DNA from: an uncultured Gemmatimonadales bacterium
Lineage (GTDB): Bacteria > Gemmatimonadota > Gemmatimonadetes > Longimicrobiales > Gaopeijiaceae
Length of the DNA: 64,000 nucleotides
Assembly (NCBI GenBank): GCA_963809895.1
Contig: CAWELD010000003.1
Location: 1,824,001 to 1,888,000 of the forward strand
Reading direction: 5' to 3'
Below are positions 35,631-41,600 of the stretch, in pieces. The first letter of the stretch is position 1. Each line of letters opens with the position of its first letter. The position numbers were made by a program.

Positions 35631-38600
35631 TCACGAGTCGAGTTTCCGCGCCACCTCTTCGGCCTCGAGCTCGTCGACCAGTTGGTTCAACCGATCGAGA
35701 TCGGTGCCCGGGCGAAAGCCGAACTGGTGCGGTTCGACTGTGAAGGCCGCCGGTGTAGCGGGCTTGTCGGTCATCCCGAGGCCGAGACGGAGCGCGCGGT
35801 TCACGACGGCCTTCATGCCCTCGCCGGAGCGCTTCATCTCCGACTCCAACCGCTTCGCCACATCCGGGTCCAGTGTAAGGGTGGTACGCATGTCCGCATC
35901 ATGATGCTCACAGTTGATGATGTCAAGATGATCTCCCGCCACGCGGCGCCCCCAACTCCCGAATCCGCTGAAGGCGTGCAGGCGTCCACAAACTGCACCG
36001 TCCACCTGGGCGAGCCCATGGGTGAATGCGCCGAGTGCCGGCTGGCTGAAGACCCCTACTCCGCCCCCAGCACCCTGGCCGGATCCAACCTCGTGGCGGC
36101 GCGCGCCGGCACGAGGATGGCGGCTGCGGATACGGCGACGACCACCACCGCGATCACCACGTACACGAGCGGATCGGTGGCGCTGACGCGGTACAGGAGT
36201 CCCTGGATCAGGCGGGTCAGGAAGAGGGCGGCACCGGTGCCCACCGCGAGACCCACGAGCACGGGCAGGACCATGGAGCGGACCTGGCTCTGGAGAATGG
36301 AATCCCCCGACGCGCCCAGGGCCATGCGCACGGCGATGTCCCGCCGCTGGCGGCTGATGGCGTAGGCGACCACGCCGGCGATCCCCACCACCGACAGGAC
36401 GAGCGCGAGCGCGCCGAACGCGGACAGGAGGACGGCGCCCATGCGCTGCGGCATGAGCACCCCCGCCACCATGTCGTCCATGGTCCTGGCGTAGTACGCG
36501 GATACGTCACGGTCCAGAGATCCCAGGACCGAGCGCATGGTGCCCAGCGCGGCGTCCGGTGAGGCCGAGCGCGTGACCACCGTCAGGAACCTGGACGCCG
36601 CCATGGAGGGCATCTGCGCCAGGGGCGCGTACATGTAGTTCGTGACCTCGTCGTCGAGCCCGTTCCAGGTCGTGTTGCCGAGCTCGCCCACCACCCGGAA
36701 CTCGGTGCCGCTCACCGTGACGAGACCGCCCACGGCCCCACCGGACGGCCAGTAGCGCTCGGCCATCCCCCGACTCACGAGAGCCACGCGCTCGCCGCCC
36801 TGAGCGTCGCCGTCATTGAAGTCACGACCTTCCAGAAGCGGCACACCGACGGTCTCGGAGAATCCCGGAGTGGTGACGACCAGGTCCAGCCGGAGCTCCT
36901 CGTCGGGCGCCGGCTGATAGCCGTTCACGTCGAAGAAGAGCCCCAGGGCGCCGCCGTCCTGCAGCGGCACCCGGGTCGCAGTGGTCACCGACTCCACGCC
37001 CGGTGCCGCCCGGAGGCGATCCTCGAAGGTGCGCACGAAGCTCCAGGCATCCTCCGTCTGGTATCCCACGAGATCCAGATTGTAGCGCAGCGCGGCCACG
37101 CCTTCGGGGCGGAAGCCGAGGTCCGTGGCCAGGCCGGCCCGCAGCGTCCGCACGAAGAGCCCCGACCCGATCAGGAGCACCAGGCTGAGCGCGATCTGCA
37201 CCGCCACCAGCGCCTTGCGGGCCCGGGTGGAGCGGTGATCGTCGCGCGTGCTCCGCCCGCTCGTGAGGGCCTGCGACAGATCCGTGCGGCTGCCCTGAAG
37301 CGCCGGCGCGAGGCCGAACAGCACCGCGGTGCCCAGGGTCACGAGGCCGGTCAGGAGGAGCGCGCCCCCGTCGAGGCCGAGATCCAGCGAGGCGATAGGG
37401 ACCCCGCCCGGCAGATCGAAGCGGCTGAGCACGCGCATGAGGGCGTCGGCCACGACCAGGCCCGCGAGGCCTCCCAGGGCGGCGAGCACCACGCTCTCGG
37501 TGGCGAGCTGCCGCACGATGCGGCCACGATCAGCGCCCATGGCCCGGCGCACGCCCACGTCGCGCCGACGACCCGAGGCCCGGGCCAGGAGCAGGTTCGC
37601 CAGGTTGGCGCAGCACAGCAGGAGCGCGAGTCCCACGGTGCCGCCCAGCAGGAGCACGAAGGTACGGAGGTCGGCCTCGCGCTCGGGCGGCAGGATGTAG
37701 CCCTTCAGCGGGTCCAGGGTCACGGAGCGGGGACCGCGCGCGTCCGGGTCCTCGTCCTGCATCTGCGTCGACAGTGCCAGCAGCTCCGCCCGGGCGGCCT
37801 CGGGCGACGTCCCGGGAGCCAGGCGAGCCACCAGCAGGTCGATCCAGCGACTGCCGCGCACCTCGAAGCGGTCCGTGAAGTCCTCGTCGCCACCCGTCAG
37901 GTACGGGCGCGATTGCATCGGGACCCACAGCTCCGGATGCAGGTTGATGCGGAGGCCGTCGAAGTCGGCGGGCGCGACGCCCACGACCTGGAAGGCCCGG
38001 CCGTTGAGCCGGATCGTCGAGCCCACCACCCCGGGATCGGCGGCGAAGTGCGTACGCCAGAGCTCGTGGGACAGCACCGCCACCGGTGCGCCTCCGCCGA
38101 ACTCGTCGTCTGCGGGCGAGAGCAGGCGTCCCTCGGCCGGCACCAGGCCCAGCAGATCGAAGAAGTTGCCCGTGACCGTCTGGACCGTGAGGAGCTGGGC
38201 GCCCTGATCCTCGCTCCCCAGCGACGCGCTGATGAGCGCCGTGGCGGCCAGGTCCCGGATCCCGTCGGTGCGGTCGCGGTAGTCGAGGAAGTCCGGATAG
38301 GAGCTCGAGCAGCGGGGGGTCCCGTTGCGGCACGTGGTGTAGACAGCGGCCAACTCGCCCACGTCCCGAACGGCCGGCGCGGCGAGGAGCGCCTCTCGCG
38401 CCACGCTGAAGATCGCCGTGCTGGCCCCGATCCCCAGTGCCAGCGTGGTCACCGCCACCAGCGTGAACAGAGGCTCCCGCCGATACGACCGGAGGGCAAT
38501 CCTGAGATCCTGCGCCATCGATCCCACCCACTCGCGGAACGCCGTCGTCCACCTCGTCATCCTCGCCTCCCTCATCATGCGTCTGCGTATTTCATCGGGA

Positions 38601-41600
38601 TCCCCGAACGCACGCACCGCCTCGCGCCGCGCGGATGCCGGATCGAGGCCCGACGCCTCGAACTCCTTCGCCCGCATCTCGAGATAGAATCGGATCTCCT
38701 CGCGCACTTCGTCGGAGACGTCCGGCTCTTCGAGTCGCGTCCACAGGCTCATGCGCGGGTCAGCGCCCGTCGTCGGCCAGCACCGCCTGCACCGCGCCCG
38801 ACAACTCGTTGAAGCGCGCCGACTGCGTGGCCAGGTGCGCGGTCCCGGCCTCGGTCATGCGGTAGAACTTCGCCCGCCGGCCCGTGTCGGTCCGGTCCCA
38901 TTCGGACACCAGCAGTCCCTGCCGCTTGAGTCGGTGGAGCGCCGGGTAGAGCACCCCTTCCTCGACGTCCAGCACCCCATCCGACGTGTCCCGGATCTCG
39001 CGGCCGATGGCGTATCCGTGCTTGGGTCCGGCCCGCAGGGTGCGGAGGATCAACAGGTCCAGGGTGCCGCTGAAGAGATCGCTACCGCCCATGAGTCACC
39101 TCGCTTGCGGCGAGCAGCGCTCCCGCTCACCCCTAGTTCGACTATGCTTGGTTCGAACCAGTATAACGGGGGATCCCTATCCGGGCTAGGGGTGGGGGTG
39201 CTACGAGCCCGGCAGGATCCGGAAGCCCTCCAACCGAGCCGCCAGTGCGAGCCGCTCATCGAACGTGACGAAGGCCGCCCCCGTGAGGCCTGGACTCCAG
39301 ACGCGGGCGGCCGCCAGCTGCAGCGCGTCGGCGGCCTTGAGAGGATGGACGCGAAGGAGCCGCTTGGCGTGATCCCGCACCTCCTCGGAGGGCAGGATCT
39401 CGAGCCAGGACTCGCGGAGCCGAGCGAGCAGGTCGAGGACCTGCCCCTCCTCCTGCGGGGTCAGCCGCTCCTCCCGCCGGAGACGGGCTGCGGCTGATGC
39501 GCATTCGACGGGCGTCCCCCACCATGCGACGATCTCCGGGTCCTCCGAGAGCAGGGCGGAGACGCTCGCGGTCAGCTCCTGTTCCAGGAGCAAGGGGACG
39601 AGCGCCGACGTATCCCAGAACCTCACCAGCCCTCCGCGCGCTCTTCGAGGACCGCCGCCAGACTGCGGCCCTCGGGATCGGCGGGGCGGGAGCCACTCAG
39701 GGAGCCGGGATCCAGCCGCCGAACCGGCCGTCGGATCAACCCCGCCCGGGCCAACTCCTCCGTGTGGCCCGTGAGGGCGTCCGCCCCCTCCAGCGGACCC
39801 AAGCGGGCGACCGGCGTGCCGCGATCGGTCACGACCACCCCTTCACCCGCCTTCGCCTTTCGCAGGTACTCGCTCAAGTGAGCCTTGAGCGTGGCGACGG
39901 AGACCCGCGCTTCCGACATCACACCTCCATGGTCATGATCATATAACCATATTAGTCACATATCCTCCATCAAGCCAGAGAGAGGGTGAGTAAACACCCC
40001 GATCCCTCACGTCGTCTCAGTTCACGTGAACTCCCTCCTCCGTGACCTGTCGCACGGCATCCGCGTCCTGCGGAAGACTCCGGTCTTCTCGGTGGTGGCG
40101 ATCGTGACTCTGGCGCTGGGGGTCGGCGCCAACGCCGCGATCTTCTCGCTGGCCCGCACCCTGTTGGTCCGGCCCGTCGAGGGCGTTCGGGCCGAGGGCG
40201 TATTCCACGTGACCGCCCGGCGCGCCGATGGCACCACGGACGGCATCTTCTCCTACCAGGACTACATGCGCCTCCGGGCGAGGAGCGCGTCCGCGGAACT
40301 CGCGGCGCACTACTCGTCGGCGCCCCTGACCGACGACTCGGACGCCGGCCGTGAAGTGGCCGGTGCGGCCGTGTCGTCGAACTTCTTTCGGGTGCTGGGC
40401 GTGGAGCCCGCGCGCGGGCGGTTGTTCACGTCTGAGGAGGAAGGTCTCCGGGGCGGCGCGCCCGTGGCCGTGATCAGCGATGCCTTCTGGCGGGAGCGCT
40501 TCGGAGGAGCACCGGATGCCGTCGGAGCGGAGATCCGCCTCAACGGGGTCGTGTTCACGGTGGTCGGCATCGCGCCCCCGTACTTTCACGGCGTCCGGAC
40601 CACCTGGCGCAACGACGTGTGGGTGCCGCTCTCCATGCTGGGCACGGCCTATCGCTGGTGTGATCCTTTCGAGCCCGGATGCGACACGCTGGGCCTGGTG
40701 GGGCGACTGCACGGCGGCGCCACCCTCGAGCAGGCGCGCGCAGAGCTGGCGAGTCTGTCCCCTTCCCTGACCCCGGAAGACGGTGACGATGCCCCCCGGA
40801 CGTTGGAGCTGACAACTCTCGGGGGATTGATGCCCGGCGCGGGCCGAGAGGGCTGGCGCAACAATCTCGTCCTCCTCTTCCTCGCAGGTGGGCTTCTTCT
40901 CGGCGTGGCGTGCGCCAACCTGGCCGGCGCGCTTCTGTCGTCGGGGCTCGCCCGCCGTGGGGAGTTGGCCGTGCGCCTGTCGCTGGGCGCCAGCGCCAGC
41001 CGCATTCGACGGCAGCTCCTCACCGAGAGCCTCATGCTCGCCCTGGCCGGTGCGGGACCCGGAATTCTCGTGGCCGATCGGATCCAGCGCCTCCTGGCCG
41101 CCATGTACGCGGTGGACTCCGAGGGATACGCCATGCCGCTGGACCTGCGCCTGGATCCCACGGTCATCGGATTCGCGGTGGTCCTGGCCCTGGCTACCGG
41201 CATGGTCTTCGGACTGGCGCCGGCCTGGCGCGCCGGCCGCGCCGACCTGAGCCGCACCCTGCACGAGTCCGGCACGCGCTCCACGCGCCGCCCACCTCTC
41301 GTCGGTGCCCTGGCGGCGATCCAGGTCGGGCTCACCCTGGCGGCGCTGGTCGGTGGGGGATTGCTGGCCCGCAGCGCAGCCGGGATCGGGGCGGGTGCCG
41401 GCTTCGATCCCTCGCGCGTGGCGCTCTTCCGCGTACGTCCGCGGCTGATCGGCTACAGCGCGTCGCGCGCCCGGGCCTACACCGCCGAGGTGCTCCGCCA
41501 GCTCGAGGCCACACCCGGCGTGCGTTCTGTCACGTTGGCCGACGGGGTCGGGTTCGTGTGGGGAGACGGCTCTCCCACGCCGACGTGGTCATCGGACGCG

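Follow-up and report, generated by a model that had tools for sequence, protein, structure and literature searches.

A PadR-ADOP module of a Longimicrobiia genome and the N-terminal prefix that varies with its PadR partner

This locus raises the question of what a duplicated MacB/FtsX-type permease does when a PadR-family repressor gene precedes it, no ATPase gene adjoins it and more than a hundred full-length relatives share its genome. It lies in a stretch of 64,000 nucleotides, here called the window, whose features are collected in Table 1. The kind is already known, as the earlier note had cautioned: both genes belong to the NCBIfam families TIGR03434 and TIGR03433, ADOP permeases have been known since 2009, and a HAAS-PadR dyad was proposed in 2024. 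The additions made here are modest, namely the co-variation of an N-terminal prefix with PadR and a genus-wide expansion in Longimicrobiia.

The module and its family

The PadR-ADOP module reported at this place was confirmed, both genes scoring over the curated cut-offs: PadR protein P0002 with 124.1 bits against 101.8 for TIGR03433, and permease P0001 with 764.4 bits against 622.3 for TIGR03434, of whose 803 profile positions 2-802 are covered. P0002 also matches Pfam PadR (77.9 bits) and is 64-89% identical to external homologues. The ATG of P0001 lies 7 nt past the PadR stop. The permease is internally duplicated, with two MacB_PCD and two FtsX domains (Pfam) in a single chain, and its AF2 model (pLDDT 89, pTM 0.79) has 8 TM helices and two periplasmic domains. 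The top PDB match of the model in Foldseek is YbbP 9GE6 (E 2e-19, probability 1.00); MacB, LolE, BceB and HrtB are also matched with probability 1.00. The TM fold is of the MacB type, in which TM1 and TM2 are separated by a periplasmic domain. MacB 5NIK is found by phmmer as well (E 2.7e-16). In the candidate promoter/operator upstream of P0002, CACCCCTAG...CTAGGGGTG form a 9-nt inverted repeat, with GTTCGAAC / GTCGAAC as inner repeats; related CCCCT..AGGGG palindromes precede PadR genes in the clade of P0002.

Table 1. Features of the PadR-ADOP module and of related loci in the window.
Feature	Position	Strand	Remarks
Candidate promoter/operator upstream of P0002	39128..39194	-	read from sequence; putative function
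PadR-family repressor gene P0002	38760..39092	-	110 aa; first gene of the module (36056..39092); TIGR03433 and Pfam PadR
ADOP permease P0001 (duplicated MacB/FtsX-type)	36056..38752	-	898 aa; TIGR03434
Cytoplasmic N-terminal prefix of P0001, residues 1-78	38519..38752	-	NF038403; three helices, third continuing into TM1
Second module, PadR and ADOP with NF038403-type prefix	4868..7895	+	PadR domain 4868-5170, ADOP 5205-7895
PadR and ADOP with NF038404-type prefix	19276..22353	+	PadR 19276-19575; core split, frame change near 20335
PadR and non-ADOP multi-TM protein P0122	27679..29469	+	PadR 27679-28068, P0122 28072-29469; N-terminal perm_prefix_1
ADOP without prefix, PadR or ATPase	40026..42452	+	808 aa; TIGR03434 663.5 bits (cut-off 622.3), match from residue 4; divergent to the 36056..39092 module
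PadR and ADOP with NF038404 prefix	42501..45529	-	PadR 45170-45529, ADOP 42501-45173; start and stop overlap in GTGA; prefix 51 bits (cut-off 35)
PadR and ADOP with NF038404-type prefix	51931..55104	+	PadR 51931-52218, prefix 52296-52598, core ORF 52549-55104; prefix and core ORF in different frames
ADOP with NF038404-type prefix, no PadR upstream	57859..60796	-	ADOP 58160-60796; PadR 57859-58155 directly downstream

The family was recounted independently of the earlier note, by jackhmmer over all stop-to-stop ORFs of the genome. The 174 ORF matches form 144 loci; 124 cover at least 85% of the profile (103 with the core in one ORF and 21 split into 47 pieces), and the remaining 20 are partial or of other families. 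The caveat that the number of loci would be nearer 125-130 was well placed. Full loci are found on C1, C3, C4, C5, C6 and C10 and pieces alone on C7 and C8, which gives the same eight contigs in number. ADOP bases, with prefixes and strong pieces included, amount to 335,160 of 5,328,191, or 6.29% of the genome (336,630 and 6.3% in the first count). Nearest-paralogue identity has a median of 38.5% (previously 37%) and exceeds 50% in only 2 of the 103 intact cores, which are the P0001 gene itself and its 92% variant on C1. The description of ADOP as the largest family of this genome, made of old copies that are mostly headed by PadR and have no ATPase genes, is supported. The host is described as a soil-type bacterium.

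The expansion had also been called extreme and peculiar to this genome, with at most 68 first-look candidates elsewhere and neither of the two other Gaopeijiaceae genomes sampled matching over the cut-off. These claims were not confirmed. A TIGR03434 match over the cut-off is present in 30 of 40 relatives, the highest first-look counts among them being 149, 138, 134, 126, 118 and 116 against 181 here, and five Acidobacteriota genomes have 387, 237, 235, 91 and 78. The expansion is not unique, because genomes of the same genus account for the counts of 149, 138 and 126 and three of the Acidobacteriota exceed the number found here.

The N-terminal prefix and its PadR partner

PadR and ADOP had been treated as independent partners. 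The pairing is real, but the picture was incomplete, as it overlooked the N-terminal prefix, which co-varies with PadR. In P0001 the prefix matches NF038403 (perm_prefix_1) with 53.6 bits (cut-off 30) over residues 9-59, and the AF2 model places its helices at 11-33, 38-49 and 52-92. Pfam HAAS (PF22564) is matched at E 2e-4 to 5e-4 with 20.9-22.1 bits, under the gathering score of 27; such a match was obtained for one of three NF038403 prefixes tested and for none of the NF038404 kind (one tested). The third helix of HAAS is kinked at GxP, and P0001 has G50-D51-P52, of which G50 is invariant among 75 homologues and P52 is variable. ADOP prefixes in this genome are either NF038403 (HAAS-like) or NF038404. 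The latter is the commoner, with 64 loci; it has no Pfam match and no relation to NF038403 detectable by hhalign (probability 0.2%). The non-ADOP protein P0122 carries a prefix of the first kind (NF038403 41.4 bits, cut-off 30, residues 17-74) and matches no Pfam family. In the PadR tree, the PadR beside it branches as sister to the clade that accompanies the prefix-1 ADOPs.

A search with TIGR03433 gives 99 matches among 111 candidates in the genome, 24 of them over the cut-off; the 99 and the 24 agree with the earlier note. PadR stands upstream on the same strand at 88 of the 124 ADOP loci and at 72 of the 103 intact ones, so that the majority reported earlier (84 of 152; 76 of 109 full-length) is retained. 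The association is with the prefix: both are present at 82 loci, the prefix alone at 6, PadR alone at 6 and neither at 30 (Fisher p 5e-17), and PadR is directly upstream in 82 of the 88 prefix-bearing loci. At least four of the six prefix-bearing loci that lack an upstream PadR are tandem second copies behind one PadR or have a PadR directly downstream. The same counts in other genomes are 27, 10, 2 and 35 (p 1.5e-9; 74 usable of 80 loci). The distance from the PadR stop to the start of the prefix alignment ranges from -61 to +78 nt in the 82 modules.

The phylogeny of PadR tracks the prefix family, not the permease core. On a quick PadR tree 2 changes suffice for the NF038403 prefix label, where shuffled labels need 21.2 on average and none of 500 shuffles did as well; the core tree demands 38 changes for the prefix types, and 42.4 on average after shuffling. 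Within the 48 NF038404 modules, PadR distances correlate with those of the prefix (rho 0.51; none of 500 permutations as high) and not with those of the core (rho 0.04), while in the 19 NF038403 modules rho between PadR and prefix is only 0.09-0.11, a value reached in 94 of 500 permutations. The earlier statement that PadR and ADOP show no correlated divergence is correct for the permease core and false for the prefix. PadR and prefix lie at most 300 nt apart, so that joint inheritance through linkage, or else gene conversion, could yield such co-variation without binding. Complex prediction for a PadR dimer and the prefix gave an ipSAE of 0.43 (runs 0.39-0.46) against 0.00 for the best control and was classed as 'weak support'. 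Of 157 solved complexes 116 attain this mark, as do 2 of 215 mismatches; values of 0.60 or less, however, came from only 18 of those 157 and from both passing mismatches. The runs agreed in at least 88% of contacts, with a partner pLDDT of at least 63.

Possible modes of action and the ATPase question

We tentatively favour, with a confidence slightly short of even, an autoregulated membrane signalling dyad in which the permease cycles with a MacB-type ATPase in trans. The module would be a self-contained unit. ADOP is a single-chain pseudo-dimer of the MacB/type VII ABC permease fold, with its 8 TM helices and two periplasmic domains, and the periplasmic domains, where divergence is greatest (mean pair identity 27%; TM parts 35-42%), would meet a ligand or an envelope state. 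A long-range conformational change (mechanotransmission) would then pass to the three-helix prefix, a direct extension of TM1, and the prefix would bind or release its cognate PadR repressor, the product of the gene just upstream, and thereby set the transcription of the operon. Such a unit would be the HAAS-PadR dyad of Ravi et al. 2024. The permease would probably still cycle with a MacB-type ATPase that one of about 12 such genes in the genome provides in trans, as flux-sensing BceAB does with its own. The dyad model leaves unexplained the 30 ADOPs that have neither prefix nor PadR, 29 of which also lack an ATPase.

It is rather unlikely, though the dyad would be equally real, that ADOPs are ATPase-free receptors in which a periplasmic ligand alone drives the change to prefix and PadR, with no transport and no ATP. 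None of the 59 ABC_tran matches of the genome lies in the 64-kb window, the nearest being at C3:1921049, and such a match is found within 2 kb at just 2 of the 124 ADOP loci (11 within 5 kb; the earlier note had likewise counted few, namely 8), against 9 ordinary FtsX-type permease loci of the same genome. By similarity to the ATPases that adjoin FtsX-type permeases, the genome has 12 MacB-type ATPases, including two near-identical pairs, for 124 ADOPs; the earlier figure of 7 was not confirmed. The family was named in TIGRFAMs for this orphan state, with no fused or adjacent ABC ATPase, and the naming speaks for the same reading. Feng et al. 2014 also use the name 'orphan permease'. Against an ATPase-free receptor stands the conservation of the core. 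Its two most conserved 25-column stretches among the 103 paralogues (2.93 and 2.77 bits, mean 1.94) are both RxRExGxRxALGA motifs, after TM2 and TM6, and sit in both halves where YbbP has its coupling helices, the presumptive docking sites. Copies with and without a prefix conserve them to the same degree, and they are unchanged in the single ATPase-flanked copy, the ADOP at C3:761353, which has a MacB-type ATPase gene on both sides; a near-identical copy of one of these ATPases stands alone at C3:2156939. Since the most conserved core segments occupy the ATPase-docking place of type VII ABC permeases, an ATPase in trans is likely, and the solved relatives MacB, LolCDE, YbbAP, BceAB and HrtBA all operate with an NBD. 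The conservation of the motifs may, however, be structural.

An ordinary ligand-sensing PadR of the LmrR/PadR type, binding an inducer and controlling an efflux or extraction permease whose prefix is a structural or membrane-anchoring extension without PadR contact, is unlikely. P0002 is indeed short, in the size range of LmrR, and matches solved relatives at E 4e-13, and inverted repeats with arms of at least 7 are enriched upstream of PadR genes (30 of 88, against 12.5% of shuffles), which fits simple autorepression. Such a repressor leaves unexplained why PadR is nearly confined to prefix-bearing loci, why its clades follow the prefix families whether or not the protein that carries the prefix is an ADOP, and why it is independent of the core phylogeny. 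That the family owes its size to artefacts of assembly (contigs of strain variants, frameshifted pieces) or to a recent, selfish amplification is extremely improbable: strain variants do duplicate a few loci, as had been foreseen (C1 is a variant, 89-92% identical, of C3:1851090-1863276 in the window, and C5 shares an overlap of 7.6 kb with C6 at 99.3% identity), and 21 of 124 loci are split, but hardly any intact core has a close paralogue, the 119 listed external homologues are 43-77% identical to P0001, well above the in-genome median, and C3, C10 and C4 carry 115 of the 124 loci, so that dropping the small contigs costs at most 9.

Beyond the autoregulated dyad at single loci, a wider proposal is doubtful but worth stating: PadR and prefix may form an exchangeable one-step transmembrane cassette, grafted repeatedly onto different type VII cores and other membrane proteins. 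A genome of 5.3 Mb would then run about 90 sensor-to-repressor channels in parallel, with a few shared MacB-type ATPases energising all the permeases in trans. If so, Longimicrobiia and Acidobacteriota would possess a form of signalling comparable in scale to two-component systems. The ADOP family probably acts as a bank of membrane sensors.

Comparison with known systems

The module resembles TIGR03434/TIGR03433 in the scores of both genes, the duplicated permease, the upstream PadR, the missing adjacent ATPase and the large paralogous family. It departs from TIGR03433, a family of acidobacterial PadR paralogues, in its host, which belongs to the Gemmatimonadota (Longimicrobiia), and in that only 24 of 99 PadR matches exceed the cut-off, the rest being other PadR clades paired with the NF038404 prefix. 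In BceAB-BceRS of Firmicutes, a MacB-type permease reports its own activity to a transcription system, which induces the same transporter (flux sensing). BceAB comes with an ATPase of its own, and its signal goes to a membrane histidine kinase, not to PadR via a fused prefix. BceAB structures (PDB 8G4C, 7TCG) are among the fold matches of the P0001 model.

E. coli YbbAP-TesA is a type VII ABC transporter (PDB 9GE6; PMC12646458). Its permease YbbP is, like ADOP, a duplicated FtsX/MacB protein whose single chain is pseudo-symmetric, and the coupling helices of YbbP follow TM2 and recur in the second repeat. YbbP counts 10 TM helices and works with an adjacent ATPase dedicated to it, YbbA, in a 2:1 complex. 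The ADOP model differs in its 8 TM helices without a linking TM pair, in its N-terminal prefix and in having no ATPase gene, and the TM-scores are only 0.36-0.40.

HAAS, according to Ravi et al. 2024 (mSystems, PMC11237479), is a three-helix N-terminal cytoplasmic domain on a multi-TM sensor, always beside a stand-alone PadR-like wHTH, and the dyads described there include a class fused to FtsX-like TM domains with MacB_PCD. The Pfam HAAS score here is under the gathering threshold, and no similarity to HAAS is detectable in NF038404, the commoner prefix; the dyad contact is a proposal for every member. The prefix of P0001 is likewise a three-helix N-terminal cytoplasmic domain with PadR adjoining, and the prefix-PadR findings fit the published dyad proposal.

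The module and its surroundings

The window corresponds to C3:1824001-1888000; its G+C content is about 70%, and the features are listed in the table. The earlier note had described the module as a PadR gene followed by an ADOP permease (a duplicated permease of the MacB/FtsX type), and both assignments hold, the two proteins scoring over their NCBIfam cut-offs; the N-terminal prefix domain of the permease had been left unmentioned. Seven bases separate the stop codon of the PadR gene P0002 from the open reading frame of the permease P0001. Residues 9-59 of P0001 are the 'permease prefix domain 1' (NF038403, 53.6 bits; cut-off 30). 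For the Pfam domain HAAS the same residues give a weak match, with E 2e-4 to 5e-4 and 20.9-22.1 bits, which falls short of the gathering score (27).

Features of the window (window coordinates)
Feature	Position	Strand	Matches and remarks
Topoisomerase	11490-13829		
S9 peptidase	16056-19109		
Ser/Thr protein kinase, 1081 aa	24254-27499	-	weak TPR matches; adjoins the PadR/P0122 pair
PadR and P0122, a 465-aa multi-TM non-ADOP protein (28072-29469)	27679-29469	+	P0122 N-terminus: NF038403, 41.4 bits
SEC-C / Xre-MbcA-ParS_C protein	31993-33474		
MIP channel	34455-35429		
ADOP permease (P0001), 898 aa	36056-38752	-	TIGR03434, 764.4 bits (cut-off 622.3); two MacB_PCD and two FtsX stretches
PadR (P0002), 110 aa	38760-39092	-	TIGR03433, 124.1 bits (cut-off 101.8); Pfam PadR, 77.9 bits

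Size, age and spread of the permease family

The family was counted independently by a jackhmmer search with the P0001 core (the permease part without the prefix) of all stop-to-stop frames of at least 50 aa (n=54,326), nearby pieces being merged into loci. The 174 frames hit reduce to 144 loci, 124 of which are full ADOP loci (at least 85% of the 820-position profile covered), the remaining 20 being partial or of other families. The core lies in a single frame in 103 full loci and is split by frame changes or stops in 21 (47 pieces); 'intact' refers to the core, as the prefix lies in another frame than the core at one window locus at least (52296-55104). Contig C3 carries 71 full loci, C10 25, C4 19, C5 4, C6 3 and C1 2, and C7 and C8 carry pieces only. 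Prefixes and strong pieces included, the family occupies 335,160 bases, or 6.29% of 5,328,191. The 336,630 coding bases of the earlier note agree with this recount; its observation of a large family is confirmed, with accurate numbers. First-look candidates for TIGR03434, a rough proxy for copy number, amount to 181, and all 67 of those scored are over the cut-off.

Each of the small contigs C1, C5, C6, C8 and C11 either is a variant of some part of C3 (89-99% identity) or overlaps with another of them, and the assembly therefore contains strain variants. C1 is a variant, at 89-92% identity, of C3:1851090-1863276 (window 27090-39276), the module included, and C5 and C6 overlap with 99.3% identity over 7.6 kb, so that a few ADOP loci are strain-variant duplicates. 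Divergence of the C1 allele from P0001 is greatest in periplasmic domain 2 (86.6% identity versus 95-100% in TM1-TM5). Inflation of the family by the assembly was rejected, because C1, C5 and C6 contribute at most nine loci.

The copies are old. The median identity to the nearest paralogue over 820 match columns is 38.5%, and it exceeds 50% in only two of the 103 cores, which are P0001 and its own C1 variant (92% identical). Among 8,000 candidates scored, 7,515 proteins are external homologues of P0001 at E<=1e-20, those named belonging to Longimicrobiales, Gemmatimonadota and Acidobacteriota. The identity of the 119 homologues listed to P0001 is 43-77%, well above the median between nearest paralogues, which indicates that the ADOP paralogues are older than the species. 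Both the rarity of paralogues above 50% and the closeness of the listed homologues led to the rejection of a recent amplification.

The earlier note, in which the genome bears the family name Gaopeijiaceae (Gemmatimonadota, Longimicrobiia), had called the expansion extreme, with at most 68 candidates elsewhere, a maximum that was due to its own sample. TIGR03434 has matches over the cut-off in 30 of the 40 closest relatives. First-look candidates number 149, 138, 126, 118 and 116 in genomes of the same genus, 134 in a genome from a different family within the order, and 387, 237, 235, 91 and 78 in five Acidobacteriota genomes sampled without selection for family size. One of the relatives is flagged as unpublished, and its tally alone entered the comparison. 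The density per megabase is also higher with 387 candidates in 8.0 Mb than with 181 in 5.3 Mb. With these proxy counts, comparable or higher, an extreme expansion specific to this genome does not hold, and its uniqueness was rejected. A Pyrinomonadaceae genome carries about 27 ADOP genes in a one-strand tandem array (G042 C113:144156-212306). The open frames there measure 800-1016 aa, most of them 810-865 aa and without room for a prefix, and the array is unlike the scattered, PadR-headed modules described here.

Coupling of PadR to the prefix

TIGR03433 has 99 matches among 111 candidates in this genome, 24 of them over the cut-off, and jackhmmer finds 106 PadR domains. At 88 of the 124 full loci (72 of the 103 intact ones) a PadR is encoded on the same strand, 228-462 nt 5' of the start of the core. 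The in-frame sequence 5' of the core is long where a PadR heads the locus and short elsewhere. These N-terminal extensions cluster into two families, one of 24 loci (NF038403) and one of 64 loci corresponding to NF038404, perm_prefix_2 (51 bits for an example in the window; cut-off 35). A common origin of the two was not detected with hhalign (probability 0.2%). Prefix and PadR occur together at 82 loci and are both absent from 30, six loci having the prefix only and six the PadR only (Fisher p 5e-17). At least four of the six prefix-only loci are second copies in tandem under one PadR or have a PadR directly downstream. The order can be reversed: at window 57859-60796 (minus strand) an ADOP with an NF038404-type prefix is directly followed by PadR and has no PadR upstream, and the same order is found at C3:3574958-3577730. 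In other genomes, 74 usable loci of 80 divide into 27 with both, 10 with the prefix only, 2 with PadR only and 35 with neither (p 1.5e-9); these loci were found via an alignment of NF038403-type proteins and scanned with HMMs from this genome, any further prefix family being scored as 'no prefix'. P0122, which has neither a Pfam family nor an ADOP core, carries perm_prefix_1 and has a PadR neighbour, and the prefix-PadR pair is thus not restricted to ADOPs. Variant copies of the PadR/P0122 pair are present on C1 and C5.

The PadR lineage follows the prefix and not the core. In a quick IQ-TREE phylogeny of 106 PadR rows, in which many forks are unresolved, the 23 PadRs with an NF038403-prefixed partner form one group, which also includes the PadR located downstream of the only other NF038403-type ADOP. 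The NF038403 label changes twice on this tree versus a shuffled mean of 21.2, and none of 500 shuffles is as low. The PadRs beside three non-ADOP proteins with an NF038403 prefix, that of P0122 among them, adjoin this group. Prefix types are scattered nearly at random over a FastTree phylogeny of the 103 cores (38 changes; shuffled mean 42.4, minimum 35).

In the 48 intact NF038404 modules the pairwise identities of PadR are correlated with those of the prefix (rho 0.51, a value reached in 0 of 500 permutations), and those of the core are correlated neither with PadR (0.04) nor with the prefix (0.02). The absence of correlated divergence reported in the earlier note consequently stands for PadR versus core and fails for PadR versus prefix. 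The picture in 19 NF038403 modules is weaker and different, with rho 0.09-0.11 for PadR and prefix (reached in 94 of 500 permutations) and 0.25-0.26 for PadR and core (in 6 of 500). Linkage or gene conversion could be a partial cause of the co-variation, because prefix and PadR are adjacent.

A PadR dimer, entered as a 71-row alignment, was modelled with residues 1-80 of the ADOP alignment. The complex has an ipSAE of 0.43 (0.39-0.46 between runs) versus 0.00 for the best control, a contact agreement between runs of at least 88% and a partner pLDDT of at least 63. Of 157 solved complexes 116 attain the mark for such predictions, as do 2 of 215 mismatched pairs; at scores of 0.60 or less it is attained by only 18 of the 157 and by both of the passing mismatches. 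The model thus weakly supports a predicted prefix-PadR contact.

Permease structure, energy supply and relation to known systems

The AlphaFold2 model of P0001 (75 aligned homologues; mean pLDDT 89, pTM 0.79) has helices at residues 11-33, 38-49 and 52-92, the last of which continues into TM1 (94-123). Two repeats follow, each consisting of a periplasmic domain and TM helices, to give eight TM helices in total. In MacB the ATPase is fused N-terminal to TM1, and by this analogy the ADOP prefix is probably cytoplasmic. The mean pair identity among paralogues is lowest in the periplasmic domains (27% versus 35-42% in the TM parts), as expected if these domains set ligand specificity. Among PDB structures the model matches E. 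coli YbbP best (9GE6), with E 2e-19, a probability of 1.00 and a TM-score of 0.36-0.40; MacB, LolE, BceB and HrtB come next. The top sequence match is MacB (5NIK, E 2.7e-16), and this search of the PDB with P0001 returned no solved ADOP structure. YbbP is described as a pseudo-symmetric duplicated permease of ten TM helices, the coupling helices of which (TM2-3 and TM8-9) dock two YbbA ATPases in a system acting by mechanotransmission (PMC12646458).

Among the 59 Pfam ABC_tran matches of the genome, few are neighbours of ADOPs: one lies within 2 kb of 2 of the 124 full loci and within 5 kb of 11, versus 9 of the 20 partial or other loci, low-scoring ordinary FtsX-type permeases that serve as an internal control. 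RxRExGxRxALGA motifs that follow TM2 and TM6 are the two most conserved 25-column stretches of the 103 paralogues, with 2.77 and 2.93 bits per column versus a mean of 1.94; in the P0001 model they are situated at the cytoplasmic turn that matches the coupling-helix position of YbbP. Their conservation is equal in 73 prefix-bearing copies, 25 prefix-less copies and the one ATPase-flanked copy. Twelve MacB-type nucleotide-binding domains were recognised by similarity to ATPases adjoining FtsX-type permeases. The conserved motifs and these domains, one of which stands alone, favour an ATPase supplied in trans.

At C3:760490-764486 a prefix-less ADOP (C3:761353-763791) lies between two same-strand MacB-type ATPase genes. 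The upstream one has a near-identical counterpart (520 bits over about 250 aa), which is solitary at C3:2156939-2157385, 1.4 Mb away. The ATPases at C3:760490, C3:764040 and C3:2156939 are candidate shared energisers of ADOPs. Near-identical inverted copies of an ATPase with a 400-aa FtsX-type permease are found at C3:137814-141152 and C3:2840459-2843757 (ATPases 491 bits to each other); they are a segmental duplication or an assembly repeat.

The most likely mechanism, proposed tentatively, is that the prefix-PadR pair would act as a signalling dyad on the ADOP, which would work as a type VII mechanotransmission permease with its ATPase coming in trans. A pure-sensor variant of the dyad, in which the ADOP has no ATPase, would agree with the scarcity of neighbouring ATPase genes and less well with the conserved motifs, and is doubtful.

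Perfect inverted repeats are enriched 5' of the PadR genes, with arms of at least 7 in 30 of 88 versus 12.5% of mononucleotide shuffles and of at least 8 in 12 of 88 versus 3.9%. Many are AT-rich, module-specific and present twice around a TTGACA-like box. Upstream of P0002, CACCCCTAG (39194-39186) pairs with CTAGGGGTG (39136-39128), with inner repeats in between. These repeats are putative operators. Plain repression by a ligand-sensing PadR would suit such operators, leaves the coupling to the prefix aside, and is unlikely; together with the pure-sensor variant it is the main rival reading.

If the dyad of prefix and PadR is true, the surroundings would be sensed via scores of permease-type receptors tied directly to repressors, and how an orphan type VII permease works without its own ATPase would become a question that can be addressed on a single module comprising PadR, prefix and core, with the three candidate ATPases. 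ADOPs are among the largest gene families in Acidobacteriota and in one genus of Longimicrobiia, with 6% of the present genome, and we know of no member with an established function.

Literature on ADOPs is sparse; outside subscription journals, Ravi et al. 2024 (PMC11237479) was the sole relevant work found on ADOP and PadR, and none was found linking Acidobacteria, FtsX and PadR. Feng et al. 2014, who cite Ward et al. 2009 for the name ADOP and for its origin in genomes of Acidobacteria, describe ten clustered ADOP paralogues in Psychroflexus torquis as highly translated. Ravi et al. suggest that HAAS-PadR dyads are an alternative to two-component systems, and the HAAS fusions that they list include FtsX-like TM domains with MacB_PCD. 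NCBIfam models already exist for ADOP, its PadR and both prefixes. With the published name, dyad and models, the kind is already known. New in comparison are the genus-wide expansion in Longimicrobiia, the quantified, near-exclusive coupling of prefix and PadR, the existence of two prefix families with no relationship detected between them, each accompanied by separate PadR clades, the independence of the PadR-prefix cassette from the phylogeny of the core, and the conservation of the coupling-helix motif in orphan ADOP copies.
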